Assembly (NCBI GenBank): GCA_964016885.1
Contig: OZ024763.1
Span: forward strand, 13,020,001 to 13,084,000
Source of the DNA: Eledone cirrhosa
Lineage: Eukaryota
DNA length: 64,000 bases
Direction: 5' to 3'
The notes below the pieces were generated by a model. The model made no database searches and had not been told where the DNA came from. It worked only from the letters and a program-made list of their open reading frames with translations. This document shows positions 3,058-47,597 of this stretch, piece by piece. The stretch's first letter is position 1; the number at the start of each line of letters is the position of its first letter. The position numbers and the translations under genes were made by a program.

Positions 3058-3153
3058 CTGGGGATGTCTTCACTTCGGTTGTTGTGGTTTGTGATCCACT
3101 ACTACCACTACCACCACTACCACCAATTACTGTGGATGTCATGGTTGGAGTGC
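3058..3153 (-). CDS. Exon F (96 bp, phase 1-1): GTPTMTSTVIGGSGGSGSSGSQTTTTEVKTSP; no stop, gene probably continues past position 1
   Basis: atatttcag|GC acceptor, CCAG|gtaggc donor; open frame. Confidence 0.8.
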
Positions 3154-4558: not shown

Positions 4559-4633
4559 CTGATATAATTTTTGTTGTCTTGGTTACTGTTGTCGTGCATC
4601 CATCAGTTGACATAGTTTTGGTTTCGGTTGACT
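4559..4633 (-). CDS. Exon E (75 bp, phase 1-1): ESTETKTMSTDGCTTTVTKTTKIIS
   Basis: ccgtttgcag|AG acceptor, CAG|gtatag donor; T-rich segment like smoothelin-family linkers. Confidence 0.8.
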
Positions 4634-6730: not shown

Positions 6731-6772
6731 CTTTCACCTTGCCATCGTCTTTGGTAACCACAGACTTTGTAT
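6731..6772 (-). CDS. Small exon D (42 bp, phase 1-1): [14 protein letters not shown]
   Basis: gatattgtag|AT acceptor, AAAG|gtaaac donor; phase and T/K-rich composition fit the neighbours. Confidence 0.75.
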
Positions 6773-9157: not shown

Positions 9158-10690
9158 ATATATATATGTAAGTATATATATGTAAGTATATATATGTAAG
9201 TATATATATGTAAATATATATATGTAAGTATATATATGTAAGTATATATATGTAAATATATATATGTAAGTATATATATGTAAGTATATATATGTAAATA
9301 TATATATGTAAGTATATATATGTAAATATATATATGTAAGTATATATATGTAAATATATATATGTAAGTATATATATGTAAATATATATAAGTAAATATA
9401 TATATGTAAATATATATATGTAAGTATATATATGTAAATATATATAAGTAAATATATATATGTAAGTATATATATGTGTAAATATATATATGTAAATATA
9501 TATATGTAAGTATATATATGTAAGTATATATATGTAAATATATATATGTAAGTATATATACGTAAATATATATATGTAAGTATATATATGTAAATATATA
9601 TATGTAAATATATATGTAAATATATATATGTAAATATATATATGTAAGTATATATATGTAAGTATATATATGTAAATATATATATGTAAGTATATATACG
9701 TAAATATATATATGTAAGTATATATATGTAAATATATATATGTAAATATATATGTAAATATATATATGTAAGTATATATATGTAAATATATATATGTAAA
9801 TATATATATGTAAGTATATATATGTAAGTATATATATGTAAGTATATATATGTAAATATATATATGTAAGTATATATATGTAAATATATATATGTAAGTA
9901 TATATATCTAAGTATATATATGTAAGTATATATATGTAAATATATATATGTAAGTATATATATGTAAATATATATATGTAAGTATATATATGTAAATATA
10001 TATATGTAAGTATATATATGTAAATATATATATGTAAGTATATATATGTAAATATATATAAGTAAATATATATATGTAAGTATATATATGTGTAAATATA
10101 TATATGTAAATATATATATGTAAGTATATATATGTAAGTATATATATGTAAATATATATATGTAAGTATATATACGTAAATATATATATGTAAGTATATA
10201 TATGTAAATATATATATGTAAATATATATGTAAATATATATATGTAAGTATATATCTGTAAGTATATATATGTAAATATATATATGTAAGTATATATACG
10301 TAAATATATATATGTAAGTATATATATGTAAATATATATATGTAAATATATATGTAAATATATATATGTAAGTATATATATGTAAGTATATATATGTAAG
10401 TATATATATGTAAATATATATATGTAAGTATATATATGTAAATATATATATGTAAGTATATATATGTAAATATATATATGTAAGTATATATATGTAAATA
10501 TATATATGTAAGTATATATATGTAAGTATATATATGTAAATATATATATGTAAGTATATATATGTAAGTATATATATGTAAATATATATATGTAAGTATA
10601 TATATGTAAATATATATAAGTAAATATATATATGTAAATATATATATGTAAGTATATATATGTAAATATATATATGTAAGTATATATACT
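9158..10690. repeat. 14-bp minisatellite TAA(G/A)TATATATATG, ~1.5 kb
   Basis: Direct reading; explains the 547-aa and 611-aa pseudo-ORFs. Confidence 0.95.
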
Positions 10691-11329: not shown

Positions 11330-11674
11330 TGGAGGCACATGGCTTAGTGGTTAGAGCATTGGCCTTGCAATCGAAAGGTTGTGAGTTCAATTCTCAGACC
11401 GGGTGATGTGTTGTTTCCTTGAGCAAGACACTTTATTTCACATTGCTCCAGTTTACTCAGCTGTAGAAATGAGATGATAGGGACTGGGGTCCCTATCATT
11501 CCACTGCAAAGTGGTCGTGGAGGTGCCACGGCAAAAAAGCCCCCACCACTCACTGTAAATGAGGTTGGTGTTAGGAAGGGCATCCAGCTGTAGAAATCAA
11601 GCCAAAATCAGTTCCCGTCCCACCCTTGCAAGCAGGGAAAAGCGGACGTAAAAATGAAATGATGATGATGATGA
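11330..11674 (+). mobile_element. tRNA-derived SINE family 1, full length, RTE-type 3' tail
   Basis: A box TGGCTTAGTGG, B box GAGTTCAATTC, CORE-like CCTTGAGCAAGACACTT, ends GCGGACGTAAAA then (ATG)n. Confidence 0.85.
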
Positions 11675-11741
11675 TATGTGTGTGTATATGTGCATATATA
11701 TATGTGTGTGTGTGTGTGTATGTGTGTATATAGATGTGTGC

Positions 11742-13775: not shown

Positions 13776-13776
<1 letters not shown>

Positions 13777-14077
13777 GGAGGCACATGGCTTAGTGGTTAG
13801 AGCATTGGCCTTGCAATCGAAAGGTTGTGAGTTCAATTCTCAGACCGGGTGATGTGTTGTTTCCTTGAACAAGACACTTTATTTCACATTGCTCCAGTTT
13901 ACTCAGCTGTAGAAATGAGATGATTATGTGGAGGTGCCACGGCAAAAAAAAGCACCCACCACTCACTGTAAATGAGGTCGGTGTTAGGAAGGGTATCCAG
14001 CTGTAGAAATCAAGCCACAATCAGTTCCCACCCTTGCAAGCAGGGAAGAAGCGGACGTAAAATGATGATGATGATGA
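13776..14077 (+). mobile_element. SINE family 1 copy with internal deletion
   Basis: Near-identical to 11330-11674. Confidence 0.85.
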
Positions 14078-16630: not shown

Positions 16631-16747
16631 CAAGGTTCTCTTTATCACCTTCACTAGTTTTATTGTCTTCAGAAGATTTCTGGGGCTTATTGACATCATC
16701 TGTTGTAGAATCCCCAGATTTCTCATCAGTTCCCTCTTTTGGTGAGG
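16631..16747 (-). CDS. Repeat exon R7 (117 bp): ASPKEGTDEKSGDSTTDDVNKPQKSSEDNKTSEGDKENL
   Basis: Intact splice sites; no stop or indel. Confidence 0.75.
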
Positions 16748-17218
16748 CTGAAATTTAAGATGTTGCCATGGATAAATTAAATGTAATCTATAACTCACAC
16801 CTTTGTAGGTTTAGCTGGCCACCTACAAGGTTACATCTCATAAAGGGTTTCTTGGATGTTTTAATGATAAGGACCCCCATCTTATGGTGTCGTCGTTACA
16901 GCTCACATCTTTGTAGGTTTAGTTGGTCTAACAAAATGAAGTGTGTGTATATATATTGAATAATATACGGGATGTTTAAACACCCCATAAATTATTCAAT
17001 ATACAATATGTACATTTATATGTATATCACAATGTGGGAAAACCAATACAAATATATATATATACACACACACATACACATTACATTATATTATATATAT
17101 CATATACACACATTACATTATATTATATATACATACACAAATTATATATATAATATATAAACATATTACATATATTTTATACACACATTACATTACAAAG
17201 ATGAAAATTAAACATCTA

Positions 17219-17252
<34 letters not shown>

Positions 17253-17363
17253 CATCTTTTTAACTCCTGACTCTCCACATGATGTCTATGACACTAACAA
17301 CAATTATGTACCCTAAATATTCTAAATGACTAGGATTTTAGTCACATGTTTGAACATTCCCTA

Positions 17364-17410
17364 TGCTCTGATGATTCCAGACTTCCTTCTGGAAGAAACA
17401 GTTGTCAGCA
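17364..17410 (+). ncRNA. Minimal type-I hammerhead ribozyme motif in a Penelope-like element remnant (17251-17750)
   Basis: TGCT CTGATGA TTCCAGA cttcct TCTGGAA GAAA C agtt G TC AGCA: full core, perfect 7-bp stem II, GUC cleavage triplet, 4-bp stem I. Confidence 0.85.
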
Positions 17411-17465
17411 AATAAATGTTCTAAACTAAAATTTGATCGTTTTAACACTTTGTATATATATATAC

Positions 17466-17552
<87 letters not shown>

Positions 17553-17567
17553 CAATATATATATATA

Positions 17568-17606
<39 letters not shown>

Positions 17607-17620
17607 ATATATATATATAT

Positions 17621-17670
<50 letters not shown>

Positions 17671-18305
17671 ATATATATAACTTTGATAGGTTTTGGCCAG
17701 AATTGGCCCAGGCCATGTCTAACTTAATACCACCCTCTTTAGACCTTTATATATATACACACACACATAATATTACAAAGAATAAGGTACTGACAATAAG
17801 CAATGAAAGAGACAGAAAAGTTCATTAGAGATGATAGAGATGTCACTGCAACACACTCAAGAACTATAGACACTATATCAATATATATATATATATATAT
17901 ATATACATAGAACTACTATTTAGGGGAACAAAGTATTCTATGTTTTTCACTACAGAGATAGAAATATAGAGACTAGTTAGATAAAAGGTACTATTGTACT
18001 ATTTAGGGTAATAAAGAATTCTATGTTATTTACTACAAATATAGAAATATAGACACTAGTTAGATAAAAGGTACTATTGTACTATTTAGGGTAATAAAGA
18101 ATTCTATGGTATTTACTACAAATGTAGAAATATAGACACTAGTTAGATAGAAGGTACTATTGTAGAAATATAGACATCAGTCAATAGAAAAAAGTGGAGG
18201 TACTGAAAGATAAATAGAAAATATGGTAAATAAAAGCAACCAAGATAGGGAACTGGAAGTCTAACATCCATCTATGAACTACTTGGATTAGGGTTCTAAT
18301 CTTAC

Positions 18306-18422
18306 CAAGGTTCTCTTTATCACCTTCACTAGTTTTATTGTCTTCAGAAGATTCCTGGGTCTTATTGACATCATCTGTTGTAGAATCCCCAGATTTCTCA
18401 TCAGTTCCCTCTTTTGGTGAGG
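18306..18422 (-). CDS. Repeat exon R6 (117 bp): ...VNKTQESSEDNK... variant
   Basis: Intact splice sites; no stop or indel. Confidence 0.75.
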
Positions 18423-18830
18423 CTGAAATTTAAGATGTTGCCATGGATAGATTAAATGTAATCTGTAACTCACACCTTTGTAGGTTTAGCTGACTCCCTA
18501 CAAGGTTACATCTCATAAAGGGTTCTTGGATGTTTTAATGATAAGGACCCCCATCTTATGGTGTCGTCGTTACAGCTCACATCTTTGTAGGTTTAGCTGG
18601 CCTCCTATGAAGATTAAATCCCAGCAGAGGTTTCTTGGGTCTTTTAATGATATCATTTACAAGTTTAGCTGGTCTCCTACAAGGTTACATCTCATAAAAT
18701 GTTCCTTGGGTGTTTTAATGATAAGGACCCCCAATCTCATGTTGTCATTATAGCTCTCACCTATGTAGGTTTAGTTGGTCTCCCGTATATTATTCAATAT
18801 ACAATATGTACATTTATATGTATATCACTG

Positions 18831-19170
18831 TGGAGGCACATGGCTTAGTGGTTAGAGCATTGGCCTTGCAATCGAAAGGTTGTGAGTTCAATTCTCAGAC
18901 CAGGTGATGTGTTGTTTCCTTGAGCAAGACACTTTATTTCACATTGCTCCAGTTTACTCAGCTGTAGAAATGAGATGATAGGGACTGGGGTCCCTATCAT
19001 TCCACTGCAAAGTGGTCGTGGAGGTGCCACGGCAAAAAAGCACCCAGCACTCACTGTAAATGAGGTTGGTGTTAGGAAGGGCATCCAGCTGTAGAAATCA
19101 AGCCAGAGTCAGTTCCCGTCCCACCCTTGCAAGCAGGGAGAAGCGGACGTAAAATGATGATGATGATGAT
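18831..19170 (+). mobile_element. SINE family 1 copy between R5 and R6
   Basis: Near-identical; absent from the paralogous intron positions near 17030 and 22910. Confidence 0.85.
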
Positions 19171-19231
19171 CACTATGTAGGAGAAACAACACACACACAC
19201 ACATACATATATATATATCATCATGATCATC

Positions 19232-19635
19232 ACCGTTTTACGTCCGTTCTTTCACGCTAGCATGGGTTAGACAGGTTGTCCTGTTGTGGGCAGTGTCCGG
19301 TCGGCTGACCTTGTCTTGCTCATACGGGAACTGATTCTGGCTTGATTTCTACAGCTGGATGCCCTTCCTAACACCAACCTCATTTACAGTGTGGGCTGGG
19401 TGCTTTTTTGCCGTGGCACCTCCACGGCCACTTTGCAGTGGGAGGGTGTGGGGGCATATTGTCTATATGCTTCAGCTTCGGCTTGTACTTGTGGGGGTGT
19501 CGGGTATTCTGTATTACTGCATGACACCAGAGGTCACGGTCGTGTGTCATGTCCTTTGAGAGGTGTAGTTGGGTAAGGTCGGCTTTTATCACCTCATCCC
19601 AGGTCTTCTTGGGTCTCCCCACTCCGCGGTTTCCA
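19232..19635 (-). mobile_element. Chimeric RTE 3' fragment plus partial SINE family 1
   Basis: ORF 19380..19622 GRPKKTWDEVIKADL...MTHDRDLW is an RTE C-terminus; 19325-19440 matches the SINE1 3' half. Confidence 0.7.
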
Positions 19636-20423
19636 TATATTTATATATATATATATATAAACACATTATATTACAAAGAATCAGGTTCAAATATATCCAC
19701 ATACAATAAACAATAAAACAGAGAGAGGTTCATCAGAGATGATAGAAATGTCACTGCAACACACACAAGAACTATAGACACTAAATATATATATAGAAGG
19801 AACTATTTAGAGTAACAGGGATGGTGGAGTACTTTACTACAGAGGTAGAAATATAGACACTAAATACATACTATTTAGGGTAACAAATTATTCTGTGGTA
19901 TTCAACAGAGCGATAGAACTATAGAAACTATTTAGATAGAACGTACTATTTAGGATAACAGGGATGGTGAATTAACTCACTATAGAGATAGAAATATAGA
20001 CACTAGTTACATAGAATGTACTATTTAGGGGAATAAAGTATTCTGTTTTTCACTACAGAGATAGAAATATAGATACTAAATATATAGAGACTAGTTAGAT
20101 AGAAAGTACTGTTGTACTATTTAGGGTAAGAAAGTATTCTATGGTATTTACTACAAATATAGAAATATAGACACTAGTAAGATAAAAGGTACTATTGTAC
20201 TATTTAGGGTAATAAAGAATTCTATGGTATTTACTACAAATATAGAAATATAGAGACTAGTTAGATAGAAGGTACTATTGTAGAAATATAGACATCAGTC
20301 AATAGAAAAAAAGAGGAGGTACTGAAAGAAAATAGCAAATATGGTAAATAAAACCAACTAAGATAGGGAACTGGAGGTTTAACATCCATCTATGAACTAC
20401 TTGGATTAGGGTTCTAATCTTAC

Positions 20424-20540
20424 CAAGGTTCTCTTTATCACCTTCACTAGTTTTATTGTCTTCAGAAGATTTCTGGGTCTTATTGACATCATCTGTTGTA
20501 GAATCCCCAGACTTCTCATCAGTTCCCTCTTTTGGTGAGG
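20424..20540 (-). CDS. Repeat exon R5 (117 bp): same peptide as R4, one synonymous AAA>AAG change
   Basis: Intact splice sites; no stop or indel. Confidence 0.75.
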
Positions 20541-21097
20541 CTGAAATTTAAGATGTTGCCATGGATAAATTAAATGTAATCTATAACTCACACCTTTGTA
20601 TGTTTAGCTGGCCCCCTACAAGGTTACATCTCATAAAGGGTTCTTGGGTGTTTTAATGATAAGGACCCCCAATCTTATGTTGTCGTTCTTATATCTCACA
20701 TCTTTGTAGGTTCAGTTGGTCTCCTATGAAGATTGAATCTTAGCAGAAGTTTGTTGTGTGTATTAATTATAGGGGCCCCCAGTCCTATCAGGAAATTGGG
20801 AGGGTCATCAGTGCTGTCACCTGTGTATTCGCAGGGTCATCAAACTATCACCTGTGTGTATTTACAAATTAAAGGGACTCTGACGAATTTATTTATAATT
20901 ATTTATCTATAACATGGTATTGAGTACTCATTTTTATGACTATCAAAATACACAGTATATATATGATGATGACAATATATATATAATCACATTACATTAT
21001 ATTATATAAACCCATTACATATATACACACATTAGATTACAAAGATGAAAAGTAAACATCAATGATATATATATATATATAACACATTACATATATT

Positions 21098-21690
21098 ATC
21101 ATCATCATCATTTTACGTCCGCTTTTCCCTGTTTGCAAGGGTTGGACGGGTCCTATTCAGCACAGCATCTCTCCACTTGTCACGGTCCTTTGTCATCTCC
21201 TTGGTGAGTTTCAGCAATCTGAGGTCTGCTCTCACCACCTCCACCCATGTTTTCCGTGGTCTACCTCTACCGCGTCTTCCTTCTACTGAGATTTCTTGGC
21301 ACTTCTTTACCCAGCGGACATCCTCCATGCACATCACATGTCCATACCATCTCAGCCTTCTCTCCTGCACACCACAACTTATCCCTCTTATACCCAGTTT
21401 CTTTCTCAACTCGTCTATGCTTGGTCATTCACGCACATTGACATTGCACATCCAACGGAGCATGCTTGCTTCATTTCTCTCCAGCTGTCGCATATCTTCT
21501 GCAGTTGCTGCCCATGTCTCACTACCATGCAGCATCGCGCATCTCACACAGGCATCATATAACCGTCCTTTCGTAGGCAGGGAGAAACCCTTCTTTCTCA
21601 ACAGAGGAAGCAGCTCCCTAAACTTCTTCCAACCCGTCCTTATTCTAGATACTATGGCCTCGGAACCCCCTCCTCCCCTCCCGTGCTAAT
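21098..21690 (-). mobile_element. 5'-truncated RTE-clade LINE, 3' end of ORF
   Basis: RRLRWYGHV...GRGRPRKTW...DRDKWR motifs; ends in the same tail as SINE1. Confidence 0.85.
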
Positions 21691-22276
21691 CTGATCATAT
21701 ATACCCACATTATATTACAAAGAATCAGGTACAAATATATCCACACATAATAAACAATAAAACAGAGAGAGATTCATTAGAGATGATAGAGATGTCACTG
21801 CAACACACACAAGAACTATAGACACTAAGGTACTATTTAGAGTAACATGGATGGCGGAGTACTTTACTACAGAGGTACAAGATATATAGAGACTAGTTAG
21901 ATAGAAAGTACTATTGTACTATTTAGAATTGGTGGACTACTTTAATATAGAGACAGCAATATAGACATAGGTTAGGTAGAAGGTACTACAGAAGAGAAAT
22001 ACAGGTACTGGATACATAGATTTAGAGTATCAGGAATGGTGGAGCACTTTATTATAGAGGTACAAAATATATAGAGACTAGTTACATAAAAGGTACTATT
22101 GTACTACTTAGAGGAACAAAGAACTCTGTGGTATTCACTACAGGGATAGAAATATAAACATCAGAGAGGAGACATTGAAAAATGTTAGAAAATATGGTAA
22201 ATAAAACCAACTAAGATAGGGAACTGGAAGTCTAACATCCATCTATGAACTACTTGGATTAGGGCTCTAATCTTAC

Positions 22277-22393
22277 CAAGGTTCTCTTTATCACCTTCAC
22301 TAGTTTTATTGTCTTCAGAAGATTTCTGGGTCTTATTGACATCATCTGTTGTAGAATCCCCAGATTTCTCATCAGTTCCCTCTTTTGGTGAGG
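22277..22393 (-). CDS. Repeat exon R4 (117 bp): ASPKEGTDEKSGDSTTDDVNKTQKSSEDNKTSEGDKENL (consensus)
   Basis: Intact splice sites; no stop or indel. Confidence 0.75.
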
Positions 22394-23663
22394 CTGAAAT
22401 TTAAGATGTTGCCATGGATAAATTAAATGTAATCTATAACTCACACCTTTGTAGGTTTAGCTGGCCACCTACAAGGTTACATCTCATAAAGGGTTCTTGG
22501 GTGTTTTAATGATAAGGACCCCCAATCTTATGGTGTCGTTCTTACATCTCACACCTTTGTAGGTTCAGTTGGTCTCATATGAAGGTTGAATCCCAGCAGA
22601 GGTTTCTTGGGTGTATTAATTATAGGGGCCCCAGTCCTATCATGAAATTCAGAGGGTAATCAGTGCTGTCAGCTGTGTATTGGCAGGGTCATTAAACTAT
22701 CACCTGTGTGTATTTACAAATTAAAGGGACTCTGACCAATTTATTTATAATTATTTATCTCTAGCATGGTATTGAGTACTAATCTTTGCAACTATCAAAA
22801 TATAGTGTATATATATACATATATATATATATATATACATATATCAAAATATAGTGTATATATATATATTGAATAATATACAATATGTACATTTATATGC
22901 ATAACGTTATGTGGGATCACCAATACAAATATATATATATATATATACACATATTACATTATGTATACTATATACACACATTACATAATATTATATACTC
23001 AAATTATATATTATATAAACACATTACATATATCATATACACGCATTACATTACAAAGATGAAAAATATCTAATATATATATATATATACAGATATAAAA
23101 CACATTCATTGCATTATATAATTAAACACATTACATATATATATATATATATCTAATATATATATAAACACATTATATAACAAAGAATCAGGTTCAAATG
23201 TATCCACACACAATAAACAATAAAACAGAGAAAGGTTCATCAGAGATGATAGAGATGTCACTGCAACACACACAAGAACTATAGACACTAAATATATATA
23301 TAGAAGGAACTATTTAGAGTAACAGGGATGGCAGAGTACTTTACTACAGAGGTAGAAATATTTAGAGGAATGAAGAATTCTGTGTTATTCACTACAGAGA
23401 TAGAAATATAAACACTAGTTAGATAGAAGGGACTATTGTACTATTTAGGGTAATAAAGAATTCTATGTTATTTACTACAAATATAGAAATATAGACACTA
23501 GTTAGATAGAAGGGACTATTGTAGAAATTTAGACATCAGTCAATAGAAAAAAGTGGAGGTAGTGAAAAATGATAAAAAATATGGTAAATAAAACCTACTA
23601 AGATAGGGAACTGGAGGTCTAACATCCATCTATGAACTACTTGGATTAGGGCTCTAATCTTAC

Positions 23664-23780
23664 CAAGATTCTCTTTATCACCTTCACTAGTTTTATTTTC
23701 TTCAGAAGATTTCTGGGTCTTATTGACATCATCTGTTGTAGAATCCCCAGATTTCTCATCAGTTCCCTCTTTTGGTGAGG
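23664..23780 (-). CDS. Repeat exon R3 (117 bp): ASPKEGTDEKSGDSTTDDVNKTQKSSEENKTSEGDKENL
   Basis: Intact splice sites; no stop or indel. Confidence 0.75.
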
Positions 23781-24496
23781 CTGAAATTTAAGATGTTGCT
23801 ATGGTTACAGTACCAGGGTCTAATGAAACACAATGATGTTACCTAGCCACAGTGTATAGTGTGTAGATATCTCCATGGTGACAGCTGGTGGTCTAACCAG
23901 ATTAGGCAAATATCAATCCTTTCATTACCATATTTCTAATGAATGACATGTCTAGGAATTTTAAATAATTTCCAAATTAATCAAGAATTTGGGGGTATTT
24001 ATTAATATAATTAATTTTCTAGTTATTAAGTTATAATTAGAACATAACATGACAAATGGTCTTTGATAAAATATGATGGAAGGTTTTGAGATAAATATAA
24101 ACACTTTAACCCTTTCATTACTATATTTCTATTGAAAGACACTGTCGATTATTTTCAAATAATTTGGAGGGATTTAAAAATATAACTAACTTTCTCATCA
24201 TTAAGTTGCTGTTTGGAATATAACAGGTTTGGAATAAAAGGTTAAAATTATGATGGAAGATTTTTAGATAAATATAAATACTTTAATACAATCTGCCATA
24301 TATGATAGAACCAGAAGTGGTCTGAGGCAGTTCGGTATCAAAAGGTTTAAGTACTGAGATTACTATGTAGATAGTTCTGTTCTAATAACTAACTGTCTTA
24401 TCAGTCTAGAGATGCTGAATTTATTGATGTTTATGTATGGATGTTTATATATACTACAACAGTGTATATATATACAGTAGTGATATGTATATATAT

Positions 24497-24887
24497 ATAT
24501 ATTAGTAAAATGGAAAAGAAAATGCTGACAAATTTTTCCCAGTGAAAAATAGTTTAATTAGGAATAAGTATAAATTAGTAATAAGTATTGGTTAGTATTC
24601 AGTTTTAGTTTTAAGTTTTTACCAGTTGTGCATTTCTAATGCTTTTCAAAAATAATTTTGAGATAGAGCGCTCGTGAGGTTTGCTCTAATCAGATTAGAG
24701 CAAACATCACGAGCGCTCTATCTCAAAATTATTTTTGAAAAGCATTAGAAATGCACAACTGGTAAAAACTTAAAACTAAAACTGAATACTAACCAATACT
24801 TATTACTAATTTATACTTATTCCTAATTAAACTATTTTTCACTGGGAAAAATTTGTCAGCATTTTCTTTTCCATTTTACTAATATAT
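24497..24887. repeat. Near-perfect palindrome, ~195-bp arms, 1-nt loop at 24692
   Basis: Arms are reverse complements with one visible mismatch (gtgaggtttg vs caaacatcac); (TA)n on the left, short unique tail then (TA)n on the right. Confidence 0.95.
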
Positions 24888-25254
24888 CACAACTCGTGTG
24901 TCACACCTCTATTTTTTTTAAATATATATATATATATATATATACTGCAGTGGTGTATATATGCTACAGTGATAAATATATACAGCAGTATACAAATATA
25001 TATATATATATAAACACACACACTCACACATATATATATATATATTTAGTAATAATAATTACAAAGACCAAAGCCGGAAGAGGGCTTGAGTACTATTGTA
25101 TATATATAAACAAGTATATGTAAACCTGTAGAGAAAATATTTATTATAGTACGGATTTAAGTTTAAGCAAAGAATTTCTTCTGAAACTCAAAAGATTCTG
25201 AAAGAGGGTGAAAGCAGAAATTCTGTGCTTGAACTTTAATCTGTACTAATAATA

Positions 25255-25598
25255 TCATCATCATCATCATCATCATTTTACGTCCGCTTTTCCCTGCTTG
25301 CAAGGGTGGGACGGGAACTGATTCTGGCTTGATTTCTACAGCTGGATGCCCTTCCTAACACCCACCTCATTTACAGTGAGTGCTGGGTGCTTTTTTGCCG
25401 TGGCACCTCCACGACCACTTTGCAGTGGAATGATAAGGACCGCAGTCCCTATCATCTCATTTCTACAGCTGAGTAAACTGGAGCAATGTGAAATAAAGTG
25501 TCTTGCTCAAGGAAACAACACATCACCCAGTCTGAGAATTGAACTCACAACCTTTCGATTGCAAGGCCAATGCTCTAACCACTAAGCCATGTGCCTCC

Positions 25599-25599
<1 letters not shown>
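25255..25599 (-). mobile_element. SINE family 1, full length
   Basis: Reverse complement of the 11330 copy. Confidence 0.85.
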
Positions 25600-25644
<45 letters not shown>

Positions 25645-27059
25645 TTAATTTACAATGTACAAACAAACAAACAAACAGTAAAACAAAGTTTCAACAGAGA
25701 TTATAAAGATGCCATTATGAAAACCACAAAAAATAGGGAAATGTTGGTAAAAGTTATATAGTGGTCACTATATAGGGTACCGAGGAAGGTGGATTAATTC
25801 AGTACACAGACAGAAATATAGTCACTAGTTACATAGAAGATACTATTTAGAGGAATAGGAACAGATATATAGAAGGTACTATTGAAAGGAACAGGCTCAG
25901 AAATATAGAAATCAGTCACAAACAATAGAAGGAAAAGACTAGAGACTAGAAGATGATAGAAAATATAGTACATATATAGTTGAGACTGTTAGTTAAAATA
26001 TTTGTTACTAAAGGATGGTAAAGATATCATTATAAACCCATAGGAAGATGAGTAATATAGATACCAGTTATATAGACGGTACTATTTAGGGTAATAAAGA
26101 TTTAGGGGTTTATTAGTAGAGATCTGCTAAAAAACTAAAGAATGATTGAAATTACTATAGTCTGTCTAGAAGAAAGTTATCAAGATTAGTTTGAAGATTT
26201 TGTTACTGAATGATAAAGATGTCATTATGAAAACCACAAGAAGATGAGACATATAAACATGTTGTTAAATATAATAGGGATCCTAAATATTTCAGAGATG
26301 GTCATGTTGGTGACAAGAAAAAAAAATCACTCAGTTCACCCAGTAAAGTAGTCGTGTTGGTGACATGATAACAAGTACCTAGTCCACACTGTGATGTGGT
26401 TGGCATTAGGAAGGGCATTCGGCCATAGGAACCAAGCCAAATATATATATCTCCATATGAGTGAGATGTGGTCTCCTGACCTGACCTGACAACTCATCTA
26501 ACCCATGCAAAGCATGGAAAAATGGACATTAAGTAATGATGGTGGTGGTGGTGATGGTGGTGGTGGTGGTGGTGATGATGGTGGTGGTGGTGATGATGGT
26601 GGTGGTAGTGGTGGTGGTGATGGTGGTGGTGATGGTGGTGGTGGTGATGATGGTGGTGGTAGTGGTGGTGGTGATGGTGGTGGCGATGATGATGATGGTG
26701 GTGGCGATGGCGATGATGATGATAGTAACAATGATGATGATGATGATGATGGCAGTGACAATGATAATGATGATGATGAAGATGCTATAGTAAATAGACT
26801 ATAATCACAGAACTACAAAGGTGACTTGAATTACACACTAACTAATGGAAATAAAAGATATTTTAAGAAATTCTATTAACACTTTCATTAATGTATTTCT
26901 GTTTCAGTTAATTTTGAAAATAATTAAAAATTTGGAGGAATTTAATAAAATAATTAAGTTTTTCATTAGTAATTTGATATTTAGAATATTACTTAAGAAA
27001 CATTTCTAAAATAAAATTTTGATGGAAGGTTATAAAATAAGGATAAACATGTTCCCCCT

Positions 27060-27670
27060 TTTGATACCAGCTGTCAAAGACTGGCTCAGATTCTATGGAA
27101 TAAAACCATCCAATTTAAATTGATTCCAATCAGTGCACGACTGGTTCAGGTTCTATGGAATGAAACCACCCATTTTAAATTAATACCAAGCTGTCCAAAA
27201 CTGGCTCAGGGTCTACAGAATGAAACCACCCATTTTAAATTGATACCAACCTATGCAAGACTGGCTCAGGGTCTATGGAATAAAACCACATGTTAAATTG
27301 ATGCCAAGCTGTCCAAGACTGGCTCAGGTTCTATGGAATAAAACCACCCATTTTGAATTGATCCCAAGCTGTCCAAACATGGCTCAGGTTCTGGTTCTAT
27401 GGAACGAAACCATCCATTTTAAATTGATACCAAGCTGTCCAAGACTGGCTCAGGGTCTATGGAATGAAACCATCCATTTTAAATTGATACCAAGCTGTCC
27501 AAGACTGGTTCAGGTTCTATGGAATAAAGCCTCCTATTTTAAATTGATCCCAACCTACGCAAGACTGGCTCAGGTTCTATGGAATGGAATCATCCATGTT
27601 AAATTGATCCCAACCTGTGCAAGACTGGCTCAGTTTCTATGGTATTAAACTACCCAATTTAAATTGTTTC
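27060..27670. repeat. ~60-bp minisatellite, ~10 units, inside a MITE
   Basis: Unit aaattgataccaagctgtccaagactggctcaggttctatggaatgaaaccatccatttt. Confidence 0.9.
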
Positions 27671-27990
27671 TATTTAAATTAAAACCTTCCAACATAATTT
27701 GATATCAGAACCTTTTGTTAAGTAAAGTTACAAATACAAGTACCATTTTAATAATGAAATAATAACTTTAGTAAATCCTTCAAAACTTTTCATTAATTAA
27801 CTAAAATATAGTGAAATTCATTAGAAATATGGTAACGAAAGGGTTAAAATGAGCATGAGCAGTTTTGTATGATAAATCTAGGTTTCAGGAGGTTTGATAT
27901 GAAAAGTGTTAGAAAATTTAAGAAGGAGATCTACTGTAAATATATAACTAAGATAGAGGGGAACTACTTGGATTAGGGTTCTAATCTTAC

Positions 27991-28107
27991 CAAGGTTCTC
28001 TTTATCACCTTCACTAGTTTTGTTGTCTTCAGAAGATTTCTGGGTCTTATTGACATCATCTGTTGTAGAATCCTCAGATTTCTCATCAGTTCCCTCTTTT
28101 GGTGAGG
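27991..28107 (-). CDS. Repeat exon R2 (117 bp): ASPKEGTDEKSEDSTTDDVNKTQKSSEDNKTSEGDKENL
   Basis: Intact tttcag| acceptor and CTTG|gtaaga donor; no stop or indel. Confidence 0.75.
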
Positions 28108-28687
28108 CTGAAATTTAAGATATTGCTATGGTTACACTACCTAATTAAACAATGATGTTACCTAGCAACAGTGTATAGCGTGTAGATATCTCCATGGTGA
28201 CAGCTGGTGGTCTAACCAGATTAGGCAATTATTAACCCTTGTAGATTAGACACATTAAATATACTGATGTTTCCATGGCGACAGTTTGTAGTCTAACTAG
28301 ATTAGACACATTCAGTACACTGACTAGTGTGTAGTAGCTGTTTCCATGGTGACAGCTTCTAAACATCGATTGTCTATTTACATTTCTGGCTGATAGGTAA
28401 AAGGCTTAAAAAACAGAAAGTAGTAGCCAGTTGTCACTTTGTGTAATGGTAACACATTCCTACTATATATGGGTGTGAGTTGGAGTCCCATGGGTGACAG
28501 TGTCCACTGTTTTACATTTCCAGGGACTTATATGCCCCACTTAGACTATTTTTCATAGTCCCACCGAAAAGAAGAAATAAATAAATAAAACTGCATGCAT
28601 TGTGGCCATTAATGTTAGAGTAAGTTACCTTAATATTTTAATATATATTTCAATACAAGTGTTGACATACCATATGTTACTATATAT

Positions 28688-30248
28688 TTAACCCTTTAGC
28701 ATTTAAACTGGCCATATCCGGCCAGAATTCTCTCACCTCTTCTGTTCAAACCAGCCATAACTGGCCATTCATACTGACATTAAGGTATAGTTCTCAAAAT
28801 AAATAACATCAAAATCTTGTAGATTCGATATTATGTGAGGTAAAGCCTTTACCACACAAATATAATTGTTTCTACTTTAGGCACAAGGCCAGCAATTACC
28901 CAGTGCATTACTGGTACTTTATTTTATCGACCCCGTAAGGATGAAAGTCAAAGTTAACCTCGGCGGGATTTTATCACACAAATATAATAGTATATATAGA
29001 GTAATGTGAATGTTATGTGAGATATTATGTGAGGTAAAGCCTTTACCATGAAAATACAATAGTATATATAGAGTAATGTGAATGTTATGTGAGATATTAT
29101 GTGAGGTAAAGCCTTTACCATGAAAATATAATAGTATATATAGAGTAATGTAAATGTTATGTGAGATATTATGTGAGGTAAAGCCTTTACCATGAAAATA
29201 TAATAGTATATATAGAGTAATGTAAATGTTATGTGAGATATTATGTGAGGTAAAGCCTTTACCATGAAAATATAATAGTATATATAGAGTAATGTAAATG
29301 TTATGTGAGATATTATGTGAGGTAAAGTCTTTACCATGAAAATATAATAGTATATATAGAGTAATGTAAATGTTATGTGAGATATTATGTGAGGTAAAGC
29401 CTTTACCATGAAAATATAATAGTATATATAGAGTAATGTAAATGTTATGTGAGATATTATGTGAGGTAAAGTCTTTACCATGAAAATATAATAGTATATA
29501 TAGAGTAATGTGGATGCTATGTGAGATATTATGTGAGGTAAAGCCTTTACCATGGAAATATAATATTATATATAGAGTAATGTGAATGTTATGTGAGATA
29601 TTATGTGAGGTAAAGCCTTTACCATGAAAATATAATAGTATATATAGAGTAATGTAAATGTTATGTGAGATATTATGTGAGGTAAAGTCTTTACCATGAA
29701 AATATAATAGTATATATAGAGTAATGTGGATGCTATGTGAGATATTATGTGAGGTAAAGCCTTTACCATGAAAATATAATATTATATATAGAGTAATGTA
29801 AATGTTATGTGAGATATTATGTGAGGTAAAGCCTTTACCATGAAAATATAATAGTATATATAGAGTAATGTAAATGTTATGTGAGATATTATGTGAGGTA
29901 AAGTCTTTACCATGAAAATATAATAGTATATATAGAGTAATGTGGATGCTATGTGAGATATTATGTGAGGTAAAGCCTTTACCATGGAAATATAATATTA
30001 TATATAGAGTAATGTGAATGTTATGTGAGATATTATGTGAGGTAAAGCCTTTACCATGAAAATATAATAGTATATATAGAGTAATGTAAATGCTATGTGA
30101 GATATTATGTGAGGTAAAGTCTTTACCATGAAAATATAATAGTATATATAGAGTAATGTGGATGCTATGTGAGATATTATGTGAGGTAAAGCCTTTACCA
30201 TGGAAATATAATATTATATATAGAGTAATGTAAATGCTAAAGGGTTAA
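28688..30248 (+). mobile_element. piggyBac-type MITE carrying ~17 copies of an internal 72-bp minisatellite and a SINE2 fragment
   Basis: TTAA-CCCTTTAGCATTTA ... TAAATGCTAAAGGG-TTAA. Confidence 0.85.
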
Positions 30249-30523
30249 ATGAGGATGAGGCCCTGCAGGCTATGAGGCTCTGAGCTGCTACCCACTCACT
30301 CCCAATGTCAATCCATTACTGTGTGTACTCCACAATGTATCAAAGTAAAGAGATACAATCAGGTCTGAAGAACATTTAGACATTAAACAAATAAAAGAAC
30401 TCAACATGATAAAGATGTCATTATAAAAATACAAGAGTGATAGAAATACTGGCACTAACTACAATAAGGTAGGTATTATTTCAGGTGAGAAAGAATTCGG
30501 TGGTATTTACTACAGAGATATAT

Positions 30524-30863
30524 ATCATCATCATCATCATTTTACATCCACTTTTCCCTGCTTGCAAGAGTGGGACGGGAACTGATTCTGGCTTGATTTC
30601 TACAGCTGGATGCCCTTCCTAACACCAACCTCATTTACAGTGAGTGCTGGGTGCTTTTTTACTGTGGCACCTCCACGACCACTTTGCAGTGGAATGATAG
30701 GGACCCCAGTCCCTATCATCTCATTTCTACAGCTGAGTAAACTGGAGCAATGTGAAATAAAGTGTCTTGTTCAAGGAAACAACACATCACCCGGTCTGAG
30801 AATTGAACTCACAACCTTTCGATTGCAAGGCCAATGCTCTAACCACTAAGCCATGTGCCGCCA
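30524..30863 (-). mobile_element. SINE family 1, full length
   Basis: Reverse complement of the 11330 copy. Confidence 0.85.
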
Positions 30864-32062
30864 TATAGACATTATTTACATAGTGGGTACTATGGTAGAC
30901 GTTATTTACATAGAGGGTACTATGGTAGACGTTATTTACATAGAGGGTACTATGGTAGACGTTATTTACATAGAGGGTGCTATTGTAATATTTAGGCTAA
31001 CAAAGTATTCCATGTTATTCACTATGGAGATAGAAATATAGACACTATATATATATATAGAAGGTTCTATTATACTATCTAGGCTATCAGAGAATTCTGT
31101 GTTATTCACTACAGAGATAGAAATATAGAGACTATTTATATAGAAGGTTCTATTATACTATCTAGGCTATCAGAGATAGAAATATAGAGAATGTAGAATA
31201 TTAGTTAAAGACTTGTTACTAAAGGATGATAAGGAATATGAGTAATATATTAGATAACAGTTATATAGAAGGTACTATTGTACTATTTAGGGTACCTGAA
31301 GATTAGTGGAGTACTTTACTGCAGAGATAGTAATATAGATACCAGTTACATACAAGATACTATTTAGAATAACAAAAATTTAGGAGTTTATTAGTAGAGA
31401 TCTGCTAAATGACTAAAATATGATATAAATTACTATAGTCTGTTGAGAAGAAAGTTATCAAGATTAGTTTAAGGACTTTGTTACTAAAGGATTATAAAGA
31501 TGTCATTATAAAAACCACAAAAAAATATGAGAAATACAGGTAATGGTTATATAGAAGGTACTATTTAGTATATGGAGGATGGTGGATTTATTCAGGAGAG
31601 ATATAGAAACATAGAAACTAGTTAGACAGACAATACTATATAGGGTATCAAGGATGGTGGATTAATTCAGTACACAGACAGAAATATAGACACTAGTTAC
31701 ATAGAAGATACTATTTAGAGGAATAGGAACAGATATATAGAAGGTACTATTGAAAGTAACAGGCTCAGAAATATAGAAATCAGTCACAAACAATAGAAGG
31801 AAAAGACTAGAGACTAGAAGAGGATAGAAAATATAGTACATATATAGTTGAGACTGTTAGTTAAAATATTTGTTACTAAAGGATGGTAAAGATATCATTA
31901 TAAACACATAGGAAGTTGAGTAATATAGATACCAGTTATATAGACGGTACTATTTAGGGTAATAAAGATTTAGGGGTTTATTAGTAGAGATCTGCTAAAA
32001 AACTAAAGAATGATAGAAATAACTATAGTCTGTCTAGAAGAAAGTTATCAAGATTAGTTTAA

Positions 32063-32170
32063 CCTTCAGCACGCCGTTGACGACAAATTGCCACAATAGA
32101 GTAATTTCCCCTTATAACACGATACAGTGTAAAGGGAAGCAATTTATAAAATAGTTCAGCGGGCTAAAGA
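32063..32170. mobile_element. 108-bp TTAA-targeted mini-MITE
   Basis: TTAA on both sides, imperfect TIR CCTTCAGCACGC / GCGGGCTAAAGA; empty paralogous site agattagtttaaggac at ~31461. Confidence 0.75.
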
Positions 32171-32363
32171 TTAAAGACTGTTACTAAAGGATGGTAAAGA
32201 TGCTATTATGAAAACCACAAATATATGATAAATATAGACACTAGTTAGATAGAAGGTACTATTTAAGGTGTCAAGGCTGGAGCTATTTAGTAGGGGTCTG
32301 TTAGAGGACTAAAGGGCGACAACCAAGATAGGTGGAGCTGGTGGATTAGGGCTCTAATCTTAC

Positions 32364-32480
32364 CAATGTTCTCTTTATCACTTTCACTAGTTTTATTGTC
32401 TTCAGAAGATTTCTGGGGCTTATTGACATCATCTGTTGTAGAATCCCCAGATTTCTCATCAGTTCCCTCTTGTGGTGAGG
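32364..32480 (-). CDS. Repeat exon R1 (117 bp, phase 1-1): ASPQEGTDEKSGDSTTDDVNKPQKSSEDNKTSESDKENI
   Basis: aatttcag|CC acceptor, ATTG|gtaaga donor; open in the frame set by exon C. Confidence 0.8.
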
Positions 32481-34285
32481 CTGAAATTTAATATGTTACC
32501 ATGGTTACAGTATCAATCAATCATTATATCATCGTCATCATTTTACATCCACTTTCCATGTTGGCATGGGTTGGATGGGTCTGAGACTTGAATGGTCAGA
32601 GAAATACGTCAAGCTCATATGTTCCATATTTGGTATGGTTTTTAAGGCTGATTGCCTTTCCTAACATACAATTTTACAGAGTGTGCTTGGTGCATTTTGT
32701 TGTGGTACCATCAGCACTAACACTTTACAGAGTCTACTGGGTGCATTCTATTGTAGCACCAGCATTACCACTCTACAGAGTCTACTGGGTGCATTCTATT
32801 GTAGCACCAGCATTACCACTCTACAGAGTCTACTGGGTGCATTTCCAGTCACTAACAGTATCACTTTACAGAGTGTACTGGGTGCATTTTATTGTAGCAC
32901 CAGCACTCCCACATTACAGAGTCTACTGGGTGCATTTCCTCATGTCACAAACACTAGCACATTACAGAGTGTACTGGGTGCATTTTCTCATGAAAGCATT
33001 GAATACTGTGCAGATATCTTTATGATGTGGTGTTTAATTAGCAGACTCGTTAGGGCATCGGACATAATACCTTGCAGTATTGATTCCCACTTTCTGCCCT
33101 CTGAGTTCAAATCCCACAGAGACAAGCATTACTGTTGATCCTTTAAAGATTGGTATATCGAATACCATTCTGGTAGTGGGGGTTCGATTCTTGGGAGAGA
33201 GGGAGGGGGGTCAGATGTGAGGGATGGGGAGGGGCAACTGGTTCACTAATTAAAACAAATTTTAATTTGTTTTTTGTTTCTTTGTTGTTGTTTTGTGGTT
33301 TTTAATTGATTTTCACATCCTGCTAGAAAAGGAAAAAAACAAACATTTGAAAATTTTAGTATCCTGAAAATAAAATTGATTTAAAAAAAAAAAATTAAAT
33401 TAAAAAAATTAATTAAAAGTATATATAATTAAATAAAAATATATAACTAATTTCAGCTGAAATGATAAAAGAAAAAGAGGTAAATTATGGCGACATAATA
33501 TTAACAATATTATTATTATCGGTAGAGGGTCGGACGCCATGCTTTCCAGCATAGTTACATCCCTTTACGGTCTGAGTTCAAATCCCGTCGAGGTTGACTT
33601 TGCCTTTCATCCTTACGGGGTCGATAAAATAAAGTACCAGTAATGTACTGGGGTAATTGCTGGCCTTGTGCCAAAAGTAGAAATAATCATTATTATTATT
33701 ATTACGTTTTTTTTAAAATAAAGTACCAGTCACACATTATTATTATTGTTATCAATAATGGGTTCTTACTATAAGCACAAGGCCAGCAATATGTGGGGAG
33801 GGCAAAGTTGATTAAATTGACTCCAGTGTATTACTGGTACTTTATTTTATTGACCCTCCGTAAGGATGAAAGGCAAAGTTAGCCTCGGCGGGATTTGAAC
33901 TCAGAATGACAAGGGCCGTAACTCTATGCGCCAAAGCATGGCGTCCGACGCTCTACCGACACTGCCAACCCACCGCCTAACAATGACAATAATAATAATA
34001 TTAATAACAACAACACTAATAAGAATGAAAAATAAAAATATATAACAAATATAAAAAAAACAAAAATATAGGAAAAATAAAAATATATAACAAATATAAA
34101 AAAACAAAGATGAAAGACAAACAGACAGACTGAGAGATATGTTGATATTGTTTTCTTCTTTTTCTTCTGACAAGTCATATTAACAGAATAAAAAATGGGT
34201 GGGGGTGGGGGACATGTTGACCAAAAAGAACATTTAAAAAAAAAAAAAACCCACTCTGATTGATATAAAAAAAAGTACACACACA

Positions 34286-36989: not shown

Positions 36990-37337
36990 CTCCATCAGTC
37001 TGCGAAGTTGTGGTCGTCAGGATGTCAGTTTTCGTTCCATCGTTGCTGGTGCTGCTGCTAGTTCTGGTACTGGTGTTTGCCCCACCAGTGTCCTTCCTGG
37101 CCAGCTGGTCAAAGGCCTCTAGCTTGCGCCTCTTCTCCTCATCGGCCATGCGCTGCCGGTCCTTCAGTCCGGCTTGTGACGCCTTCAGGCGCAGGTCTTC
37201 CATGTCCTTGGTTAAGGTCGCGTTCTCTTTAAACTGTTGCAGAATCCTCTGCTTTTCCTCATCCGCGCGCTTTACCTTTTCCTTCAGGGCATTGTCTGCG
37301 AGATTTTCATTCTCCAGACGCTTTTTTTCCCATTCCT
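36990..37337 (-). CDS. Exon C (348 bp, phase 1-1): KEWEKKRLENENLADNALKEKVKRADEEKQRILQQF...MADEEKRRKLEAFDQLARK...TTTSQTDG; coiled coil followed by an S/T-rich segment
   Basis: Acceptor ctctgaaaaacag|AG after a pyrimidine tract, donor GGAG|gtagga; GC-richer than flanks; overlaps ORF 36955..37203; phase matches both neighbours. Confidence 0.9.
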
Positions 37338-38459: not shown

Positions 38460-39660
38460 TTAACCCTTTAGCATTTAAACCAGCCATATCTGGCTAGAAT
38501 TCTCTCACCTCTTTCTGTTCAAACTGGCTGTAACTCGCCACTCATACTGATATTAAGGTATTGTTCTCAAAATAAATAATATCAAAGTCTCATAGATTTG
38601 ATAATTATATGAGGTAAAGCCTTTATCATGAAAATACAATAGTATATATAGAGTAATGTGGATGTTATGTGAGATATTATGTGAGGTAAAGCCTTTACCA
38701 TGAAAATACAATAGTATATATAGAGTAATGTGAATGTTATGTGAGATATTATGTGAGGTAAAGATTTTACCATGAAAATACAATAGTATATATAGAGTAA
38801 TGTGAATGTTATGTGAGATATTATGTGAGGTAAAGACTTTACCATGAAAATATAATAGTATATATAGAGTAATGTGGATGTTATGTGAGATATTATGTGA
38901 GGTAAAGCCTTTACCATGAAAATACAATAGTATATATAGAGTAATGTAAATGTTATGTGAGATATTATGTGAGGTAAAGCCTTTACCATGAAAATACAAT
39001 AGTATATATAGAGTAATGTGGATGTTATGTGAGATATTATGTGAGGTAAAGCCTTTACCATGAAAATACAATAGTATATATAGAGTAATGTGGATGTTAT
39101 GTGAGATATTATGTGAGGTAAAGCCTTTACCATGAAAATACAATAGTATATATAGAGTAATGTGGATGTTATGTGAGATATTATGTGAGGTAAAGCCTTT
39201 ACCATGAAAATACAATAGTATATATAGAGTAATGTGGATGTTATGTGAGATATTATGTGAGGTAAAGCCTTTACCATGAAAATACAATAGTATATATAGA
39301 GTAATGTGGATGTTATGTGAGATATTATGTGAGGTAAAGCCTTTACCATGAAAATACAATAGTATATATAGAGTAATGTGAATGTTATGTGAGGTAAAGA
39401 CTTTACCATGAAAATATAACAGTATATATAGAGTAATTGTCTCTACTTTAGGCACAAGGCTAGCAATTACCCAGTGCATTACTGGTACTTTATTTTATCG
39501 ACCCCGTAAGGATGAAAGGCAAAGTCAACCTCGGCGGGATTTGAACTCAGATTGTAAAGGGACGTAACTATGCTGGAAAGCATGGCGTCCGACCCTCTAC
39601 TGATACTGCCAATCCACCGCCAAAAGTATATATAGAGTAATGTAAATACTAAAGGGTTAA
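38460..39660 (+). mobile_element. Same MITE with ~11 copies of the 72-bp unit and a SINE2 insertion
   Basis: TTAA-CCCTTTAG ... CTAAAGGG-TTAA termini. Confidence 0.85.
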
Positions 39661-43240: not shown

Positions 43241-43316
43241 TCATCTTTTTGTCCCGAACTTCCCGAAGTCTGGCCCGAATCTTCTTCCTGTCTTCAAAGT
43301 TGTCCACTTTATCCAA
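43241..43316 (-). CDS. Exon B (76 bp, phase 0-1): LDKVDNFEDRKKIRARLREVRDKKM, core of the Smoothelin motif
   Basis: Acceptor gttctgttacag|TTG, donor ATGA|gtaagt; resembles vertebrate smoothelin DEEVLDKMLDQSTDFEERKLIRAALRELR (recalled from memory). Confidence 0.9.
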
Positions 43317-44999: not shown

Positions 45000-45290
45000 A
45001 GGTAACATGATTAGAGAGAGAGAGAGAGAGGGGGGGGGTAAGCAGAGTAGGGGTAGATGTAACGATGGTATTAGAAAAGTAGTTAAAATCCAGTAGAAGC
45101 TGTCAGTGTTTCTACTCTGCTATTCTTAGAATGGTGAGGGATATATTCTACATGTAAAAACAACACCAGTGTAACACCATTCTTCTGTGTCTGTGAGGCT
45201 GGAAGTTATTCTAAGAATACTTCCCGAAAACTTGATAACAGTTCTGGTGTCAGGCAGCACAGAATATATATACATACATATATATATATG

Positions 45291-45547
45291 TGGAGGCACA
45301 TGGCTTAGTGGTTAGAGCATTGGCCTTGCAATCGAAAGGTTGTGAGATCAATTCTCAGACCGGGTGATGTGTTGTTTCCTTGAGCAAGACACTTTATTTC
45401 ACATTGCTCCAGTTTACTCAGCTGTAGAAATGAGATGATAGGGAGTGGGGTCCATATCATTCCACTACAAAGTGGTTGTGTAGGCACCACAGCAAAAAAG
45501 CACCAAGCACTCACTGTAAATGAGGTTGGTGTTAGGAAGGGCATCCA
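45291..45547 (+). mobile_element. SINE family 1, 3'-truncated
   Basis: Sequence match to the family. Confidence 0.8.
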
Positions 45548-45777: not shown

Positions 45778-46091
45778 ATCATCATCATCATCATCATTTT
45801 TACGTCCACTTTTCCCTGCTTGCAAGGGTGGGACGGGAACTGATTCTGGCTTAATTTCTACAGTTGGATGCCCTTCCTAACACCAACCTCATTTACAGTG
45901 AGTGCTGGGTGCTTTTTGCCGTGGTGCCTACACGACCACTTTGCAGTGGAATGATAGGGACCCCAGTCCCTATCATCTCATTTCTACAGCTGAGTAAACT
46001 GGAGCAATGTGAAATAAAGTGTCTTGCTCAAGGAAACAACACATCACCCGGTCTGAGAATTGAACTCAAACCTTTCGATTGCAAGGTCAAT
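45778..46091 (-). mobile_element. SINE family 1, 5'-truncated
   Basis: Sequence match; inverted relative to the 45291 copy. Confidence 0.8.
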
Positions 46092-46270: not shown

Positions 46271-46749
46271 AATTATATATATATATATATATAATATTAT
46301 ATATATATATATATATAATATGGTGCCGCGCCATCCAGGCCGAAACAAATGAGATCGTGTAGGTGTCACGACAAAAAAACACACAGTCCACGCTGTAATG
46401 TGGCCGTGAAGGCAACACGGTAAAAACCTCCCAGACCCACACTGTAAATGTGGTTGGTGTTAGGAAGGGCATCCAACTGTAGAAAACCTGCCAGACAGTC
46501 CTATGCGAGCAAGACAATCACTCTTGCCTCAAGTGGGACTACCCCCGTCCAAACCCATGCAAGCGTGGAACACGGACGTTAAACGTTGATGATGATGATG
46601 ATGATGATATATATATATATATAATGTAGTGAATTTTATAAAAAAAGTATATCCACATTCGGCAGAGTACTCAGTTCGAGTGCCAAGTTGTAATATACAA
46701 AATTTGGTGAAATTCACATTTCTAATTTAGGCACACAATTAATTAAATT

Positions 46750-47565: not shown

Positions 47566-47597
47566 TATAATAATAGAACAAAGTTTACCCCCCTTAC

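Follow-up and report, generated by a model that had tools for sequence, protein, structure and literature searches.

The window analysed here, a stretch of 64,000 nucleotides from Eledone cirrhosa (GenBank assembly GCA_964016885.1, contig OZ024763.1, positions 13,020,001 to 13,084,000), carries part of a gene that is, judged by its sequence, an octopod smoothelin, with two immunoglobulin (Ig) domains, a Smoothelin motif and a C-terminal CH domain. Within this gene lies an array of seven exons, R1 to R7, each of 117 base pairs (bp) and phase 1, on the minus strand and bounded in every case by a tttcag acceptor and a gtaaga donor. In window coordinates they are:

32364-32480, minus strand: R1, 117-bp phase-1 exon; the most divergent copy, with 4 replacement changes
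27991-28107, minus strand: R2, 117-bp phase-1 exon
23664-23780, minus strand: R3, 117-bp phase-1 exon
22277-22393, minus strand: R4, 117-bp phase-1 exon; equal to the majority sequence
20424-20540, minus strand: R5, 117-bp phase-1 exon; peptide identical to that of R4
18306-18422, minus strand: R6, 117-bp phase-1 exon
16631-16747, minus strand: R7, 117-bp phase-1 exon; one variant in common with R1

From R1 to R7, the copies differ from the majority sequence by 4, 2, 2, 0, 1, 1 and 1 bases. A first-pass annotation, made by a model from the sequence letters, had reported seven copies with these coordinates, this length, these splice sites and 0-4 substitutions, and all of this was borne out. 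The introns of the array, 1.3-4.3 kilobases (kb) long, contain indels and insertions of dispersed repeats at position-specific places, in agreement with the same annotation. A DNA search of the whole genome (3.0 gigabases) returned seven matches to the R unit, every one inside the window, and no eighth copy was found in the 464 kb around the window with a protein profile of all known units and low-stringency blastn.

The mean difference between copies is 2.6%, and identity this high would fit a locus in which one or a few copies (R1, for example) are used while the rest arose by recent duplication and stay unused, or are in part an assembly artefact. Intact copies are expected by chance at such divergence: the chance of zero nonsense changes among the 10 variant sites is 0.64, and that of zero indels in R4-R7 at the rate of the flanks is 0.22. 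The earlier observation that the copies contain no stop or indel, true of all seven, is weak by itself for this reason. Nevertheless, every copy carries private variants and is flanked by sequence with insertions specific to its position, the window contains no N (40% of it is masked as tandem repeat), and contigs from two DNA-type sequencing runs link an R exon to both R3-type and R4-7-type upstream flank, although these runs belong to one study, possibly that of the assembly's own sample, and are not independent of it. Since models of orthologous genes, described below, also contain many units, we consider unused or artefactual copies very unlikely. Read depth was not counted as a measure of copy number: in one run the depth of the exon contig relative to the R4-7-type flank contig was 1.77 (7/4 = 1.75), but the R3-type contig gave 2.9, and contig depth is in any case no direct copy number.

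The frame of the array was fixed by homology to Octopus proteins, which supports the 39-residue unit rich in Ser, Thr, Asp, Glu and Lys proposed in the first-pass annotation. A second frame, starting at the first exon base, is also free of stops in 7/7 copies but is not the frame of the orthologues. When R1-R7 are joined with the surrounding exons A, B, C, b, D and E, the frame stays open in 128/128 subsets of the seven.

The identity of the host gene was established with exon C. As a query it matches proteins of three octopods at 75-80% identity, namely LOC115224761 of O. sinensis, LOC106870346 of O. bimaculoides and a gene model from Argonauta. These proteins contain two I-set Ig domains and the Smoothelin motif PF12510, with a C-terminal CH domain in O. 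sinensis and Argonauta. Mapping of the octopod proteins on the window and its neighbourhood revealed one colinear minus-strand gene of ~250 kb, orthologous to LOC115224761 and LOC106870346, and over that distance the exon order Ig, Ig, A, B, C, R, b, D, E, F, CH is common to Eledone and the Octopus orthologues. The exons within the window other than the R copies are:

47598-47789, minus strand: exon A, 192 bp; its 3' end is the first half of the Smoothelin motif; tblastn 54-56% to O. sinensis and O. bimaculoides
43241-43316, minus strand: exon B, 76 bp; core of Smoothelin motif PF12510; sets phase 1; 80-84% to Octopus
36990-37337, minus strand: exon C, 348 bp, phase 1-1, rich in Glu, Lys and Arg; 75-80% to the three octopod proteins
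6731-6772, minus strand: exon b, 42 bp, phase 1-1; best ungapped match to a 14-residue Octopus segment; ag|...|gtaaac splice sites
4559-4633, minus strand: exon D, 75 bp, phase 1-1, Thr-rich; 58% to O. bimaculoides
3058-3153, minus strand: exon E, 96 bp, phase 1-1, rich in Gly, Ser and Thr; exon F and three CH-domain exons lie further on

Exon B alone passes the PF12510 model (29.2 bits, cut-off 23), which bears out the smoothelin identity suggested earlier. The Ig exons lie ~110 kb above the window. Below its low end, exon F follows at ~15 kb and the CH exons at 71-75 kb. The CH exons are on the same strand and ~90% identical to the O. sinensis CH domain, itself passing PF00307; by comparison with the orthologues, they probably share one transcript with the exons of the window. 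The true 3' neighbour of the R array is exon b and not exon D, as had been supposed when this 42-bp phase-1 exon was missed. An 18-residue Octopus exon, 'a', which follows the Octopus array, was not found here between C and D, and Pfam holds no family for the R unit. A crude splice-site scan recovered A and B alone of 13 exons. Matches to exon C among sequencing runs comprised three runs from one study, with no RNA run listed. Aligned to R1, contigs from two of these runs extend into the introns and are therefore genomic, and the third yielded no contig.

The array is not special to this genome. Two Octopus species carry it at the same place in their RefSeq annotations, and the comparison of copy number that the first-pass annotation had proposed gives six units in O. 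bimaculoides and eight in O. sinensis (eight positions, seven distinct sequences). Eledone thus resembles LOC115224761 and LOC106870346 in gene, exon order and repeat unit, and the Octopus models contain from 0 to 7 units each. To assess inclusion, 32 orthologue models were examined, 18 of at least 34 from O. sinensis and 14 from O. bimaculoides. They contain 0, 2, 3, 4, 5, 6 or 7 units; at least two are present in 29/32 and none in 3/32. The first unit is unit 1 in all 29 unit-bearing models. The Octopus units are distinct enough (60-97%) for joins to be told apart, and 16 distinct unit-to-unit joins were counted in O. sinensis and 10 in O. bimaculoides, of which nine and five, respectively, skip units. 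Skipping in these models removes one whole unit at a time.

The orthologue gene models make it likely that the R exons of E. cirrhosa are included in varying numbers and combinations. Variable inclusion, proposed in the first-pass annotation, is in this way supported indirectly, on the strength of Octopus and not of Eledone cirrhosa itself. The R exons are homologous and in tandem, symmetric in phase and intact at their splice sites, the features that characterise a tandem cassette array. We propose that they form a set of frame-preserving smoothelin exons whose variable inclusion would yield a predicted disordered, acidic spacer of 0-273 residues, tuned in length, and assign this reading a probability of about 0.55.

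The first-pass annotation had left constitutive, combinatorial and mutually exclusive use side by side. Because the models contain deletions of whole units among distinguishable units, they favour combinatorial cassette splicing over mutual exclusion. In a Dscam-like arrangement exactly one copy would enter each transcript, and tandem exon duplication is, in the part of PMC9013439 drawn on here, often tied to mutually exclusive choice. Exactly one unit is, however, found in 0/32 orthologue models, adjacent joins occur, and with 117 = 39 x 3 two copies carry no frame penalty. The introns are long (>1.2 kb) with ordinary GT-AG sites, candidate docking/selector pairing did not rise above shuffled sequences in 8/8 tests (2-12 of 12 shuffles as good), and a choice among near-identical copies would yield almost no diversity. 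Mutual exclusion is therefore the least credible of the explanations considered, and extremely improbable.

A second alternative is that all seven exons are included whenever the block is used, so that genomic copy number, and not splicing, sets the length of the repeat. Every copy has identical splice sites, the 1.3-4.3-kb introns impose no steric bar, and the orthologue models are skewed toward many units, all as expected of invariant inclusion. It is difficult to reconcile with the 14 distinct unit-skipping joins in the models of the two species, and with the pyrimidine tracts of the R acceptors, which are short compared with those of exons A and B; we regard it as distinctly unlikely.

The flanks of the array are themselves variable. 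Exon C is missing from 17/18 O. sinensis and 2/14 O. bimaculoides models. In O. sinensis, 17/17 unit-bearing models lack C, and the single C-bearing model has none of R, b, D and E; the model from Argonauta, too, is C-only. C and D, which the first-pass annotation had taken as fixed flanks, are each skipped in some orthologue models, and primers from C to D would for this reason be a poor choice for reverse-transcription PCR, as they could miss major products. Since phase 1-1 is common to C, R1-R7, b, D and E, the stretch from the Smoothelin motif to the CH domain consists of skippable modules throughout. These patterns suggest two programmes, one with the conserved charged segment encoded by C, which its composition predicts to be helical, and one with a disordered linker block; the R(n)-b-D-E block would be partly an alternative to exon C. 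Two unnamed proteins from short Logan contigs, P0043 and P0190, differ by one in-frame 21-residue cassette directly after the equivalent of exon B, and both lack C. The Logan short-contig proteins are 81-83% identical to octopod CH domains.

The chemistry of the R unit is consistent with a flexible spacer. Its 39 residues include 11 acidic, six basic and 11 Ser/Thr, with no aromatic and two aliphatic residues, and a charge-hydropathy comparison places it far on the disordered side (0.28 vs 0.46). Five Ser/Thr motifs are of the acidic-kinase type. At the RNA level, the pyrimidine tracts of the R acceptors are not only short but interrupted by purines, relative to exons A and B, and a hairpin was predicted over the donors:

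32334-32373, minus strand: hairpin predicted to cover the R1 donor, with a counterpart predicted at every R donor of the array

The predicted energies are -7.3 to -10.1 kcal/mol (z -1.3 to -3.4), but the hairpin was noticed by eye and post hoc, exon b has one of equal strength, which four other donors do not, so that it is only a lead.

These features suggest a model for the spacer, which would have the Smoothelin motif on one side and the C-terminal CH domain on the other. Short, purine-interrupted acceptor tracts, perhaps together with the donor hairpin, would make each copy skippable, and the resulting spacer length would alter the reach or flexibility between the two filament-associated ends of the protein in different muscles. 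Vertebrate smoothelin family members associate with actin/tropomyosin filaments in muscle. A smoothelin-like protein of scallop is enriched in catch muscle, according to the part of PMC5963113 used here. By analogy with both, the octopod protein may also act in muscle.

Variable-length disordered segments built from repeated cassette exons are known in principle from the giant muscle proteins of vertebrates and insects. In the portions of PMC6469411 and PMC3835035 that bear on this comparison, disordered segments whose length varies are encoded by repeated exons in the PEVK regions of titin and projectin, and lineage-specific duplications are described; the content of Pro, Glu, Val and Lys is ~70% in titin and 42-100% in projectin. 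The likeness to the R array, as far as these portions go, is that short exons recur within the gene of a muscle cytoskeletal protein. The differences are that smoothelin belongs to another protein family, for which a spring role is not implied, and that the array has seven exons, against tens to over a hundred in the portions cited. The acidic R unit, dominated by Ser, Thr, Asp, Glu and Lys, contains the four PEVK residues at 13 of 39 positions (33%), with one proline, and is not PEVK-like in sequence, contrary to the resemblance drawn earlier. From its sequence the R array would work like a small PEVK-type cassette block; it is neither a PEVK segment nor a Dscam-type cluster. A PEVK segment is also characterised by elasticity, its spliced length determining passive tension.

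A bolder version, which we advance tentatively and think unlikely, holds that octopod smoothelin is a splice-adjustable ruler or spring for boneless muscles, a thin-filament analogue of titin PEVK that evolved independently. A stiff charged-helix exon C would be switched with an acidic disordered block dialled in 39-residue steps by muscle type; temperature may act through the donor hairpin, and the array would be held at 6-8 units while its sequence is renewed by exon-centred conversion.

The history of the array differs between lineages. The seven R peptides are 94% identical on average (87-100%), compared with means of 73% and 75% within the two Octopus arrays, and Eledone and Octopus units share 65% mean identity (range 50-77%). 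In a midpoint-rooted maximum-likelihood tree of 20 units and 38 columns, the seven Eledone copies form one clade with bootstrap 100, while units of the two Octopus species group by matching position (bootstrap 51-99), position pairs being 89-100% identical. The Octopus units are thus diverged, 31-38 residues long and paired by position, whereas those of Eledone are all of 39 residues and fall in a single clade. Because of this separate clade and the higher identity (94% vs 73-75%), we suggest that this lineage has seen renewed expansion or homogenisation of the array. The same tree would result from concerted evolution and from a single ancestral exon that expanded independently, and either fits. 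Copies are closer within the species (94%) than to Octopus (65%), the pattern that defines concerted evolution. The four-gamete test fails for two of the three pairs of informative sites, a possible trace of exchange between copies, although there are three such sites in all and recurrent mutation is possible. The copies may have arisen by unequal crossing-over of exon-plus-intron units, followed by re-expansion or homogenisation in this lineage.

Exons and flanks have not changed at the same pace. Among R4-R7, 3/117 sites vary in the exon vs 22/269 in the aligned flanks (Fisher p=0.027), and 2/87 replacement sites vary (p=0.04). Across R3-R7 the exons diverge by 0.9-2.6% and the downstream introns by 5-14%, a contrast that degenerate intron repeats can inflate; the flanks of R1 and R2 are barely alignable to those of other copies beyond ~30 bases. 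Concerted evolution of tandem exon-intron units has been described for exon 2 of SmPoMuc in Schistosoma mansoni and for spider silk (PMC2576457). In the part of that paper compared here, introns are homogenised as much as or more than exons, whereas in Eledone the exon and ~25 nucleotides on each side are best kept; those cases concern secreted multigene or silk proteins, and the Eledone array a single-locus cytoskeletal protein.

Several observations weigh against a tuned spacer. The RefSeq X-isoforms are computed models in which short reads may have been pieced together into full-length combinations, and the isoform listing is a clustered, incomplete sample. The Eledone copies are 95-99% identical, so that the 128 subsets give 96 distinct proteins differing almost only in length. 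C and R occur together in 11/14 O. bimaculoides models, and a C-versus-R switch is accordingly not strict. Over all seven copies, 7/87 replacement vs 3/24 silent sites vary (p=0.45), and selection on the R peptide is not established by this comparison.

The last of these points would also be expected if variable splicing is real but untuned, that is, if unequal crossing-over freely multiplies a symmetric exon that sits in a disordered linker, the copies are tolerated and skipping is noise. Such tolerance also accommodates the complete turnover of the array between lineages, its repeat-rich introns in a window 40% masked, and the restricted distribution of the unit: outside Octopus, the 150 best smoothelin/CH representatives yielded no homologue of the R unit (best 6.9 bits), where each representative stands for a 50% cluster, other isoforms being unseen, and limpet, chiton, mussel, scallop and annelid are included. 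It accounts less well for the persistence of an array of 6-8 units in three octopod species, for the 89-100% identity of position-specific units between the two Octopus species, for exons better kept than the introns duplicated with them, and for the retention of both splice sites in all seven copies. We favour regulation of length, at the probability given above, over mere tolerance, which we hold to be possible but doubtful.

Among the representatives searched, the smoothelins of Patella, Liolophura, Mytilus, Mizuhopecten and Owenia share with the octopod proteins the Smoothelin motif, an exon-C-like charged segment, a Thr-rich segment and the CH domain, and the R unit is in none of these lophotrochozoan sequences, one per 50% cluster. 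A search of shorter proteins gave two matches, neither with an R unit. Six CH-domain proteins (P0112, P0155, P0156, P0161, P0165 and P0182) have near-perfect tandem repeats of their own, of 20-32 residues, before the CH domain, hinting that the linker in front of this domain is a recurrent site of repeat growth. Tandem exon duplication affects ~10% of animal genes and is prominent in obscurin and nebulin, according to the part of PMC9013439 consulted.

Automatic annotations of Octopus already contain the array implicitly, hidden by misleading names: the smoothelin models are labelled 'uncharacterized', 'unc-89' or 'serine-rich adhesin for platelets'. No paper on smoothelin in octopus or other cephalopods, or on LOC115224761 or LOC106870346, was found in the literature searched, subscription journals and supplements lying outside its scope. 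The present analysis identifies cephalopod smoothelin as a muscle-type gene that is heavily spliced and contains a repeat block specific to octopods, and adds the lineage-specific clade of copies, exon b and the optional exon C. The two states of one array, old and diverged in Octopus and near-identical here, make a compact case of exon-level turnover. The copy-diagnostic variants of the R exons offer a cheap test of which are used, and if unit number does track muscle type, this would provide a molecular handle on the mechanics of arm vs mantle muscle in octopus.

Further features of the gene lie outside the window. An exon upstream of A (contig positions 13180700-13182100, ~97-98 kb above the window) contains a repeated segment rich in Thr, Ser, Gly and Asn that is apparently longer than in Octopus, and the intron from this large exon to exon A spans ~110 kb. 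In O. bimaculoides, 0/14 models reach the CH domain, and the annotation seems truncated.

The introns of the window contain several repeat families. A young dispersed repeat of ~330 bp, SINE-like (short interspersed element) by our labelling, occurs in copies mostly 94-98% identical, three of which sit at different places in the array introns:

11334-11676, 13776-14077, 18831-19170 and 25277-25599, both orientations overall: ~330-bp repeat
30523-30863, 45266-45547, 45798-46091 and 52851-53003, both orientations overall: ~330-bp repeat

A second dispersed family, of ~185 bp, is found at 28858-28971, 33517-33993, 39438-39621 and 46739-50022, with at least six copies clustered around exon A. The R4-R5 intron contains, at 21066-21686 on the minus strand, a broken fragment that we take to be the end of a reverse-transcriptase open reading frame from a non-LTR (long terminal repeat) retrotransposon. 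The intron between R7 and exon b includes a 1.5-kb AT-rich minisatellite with a period of ~14 bp (9159-10688). Finally, a 282-bp block is 98% identical between the R2-R3 intron (25911-26192) and the R1-R2 intron (31779-32060), which may reflect either recent local duplication or conversion, though the adjoining flanks of R1 and R2 barely align.

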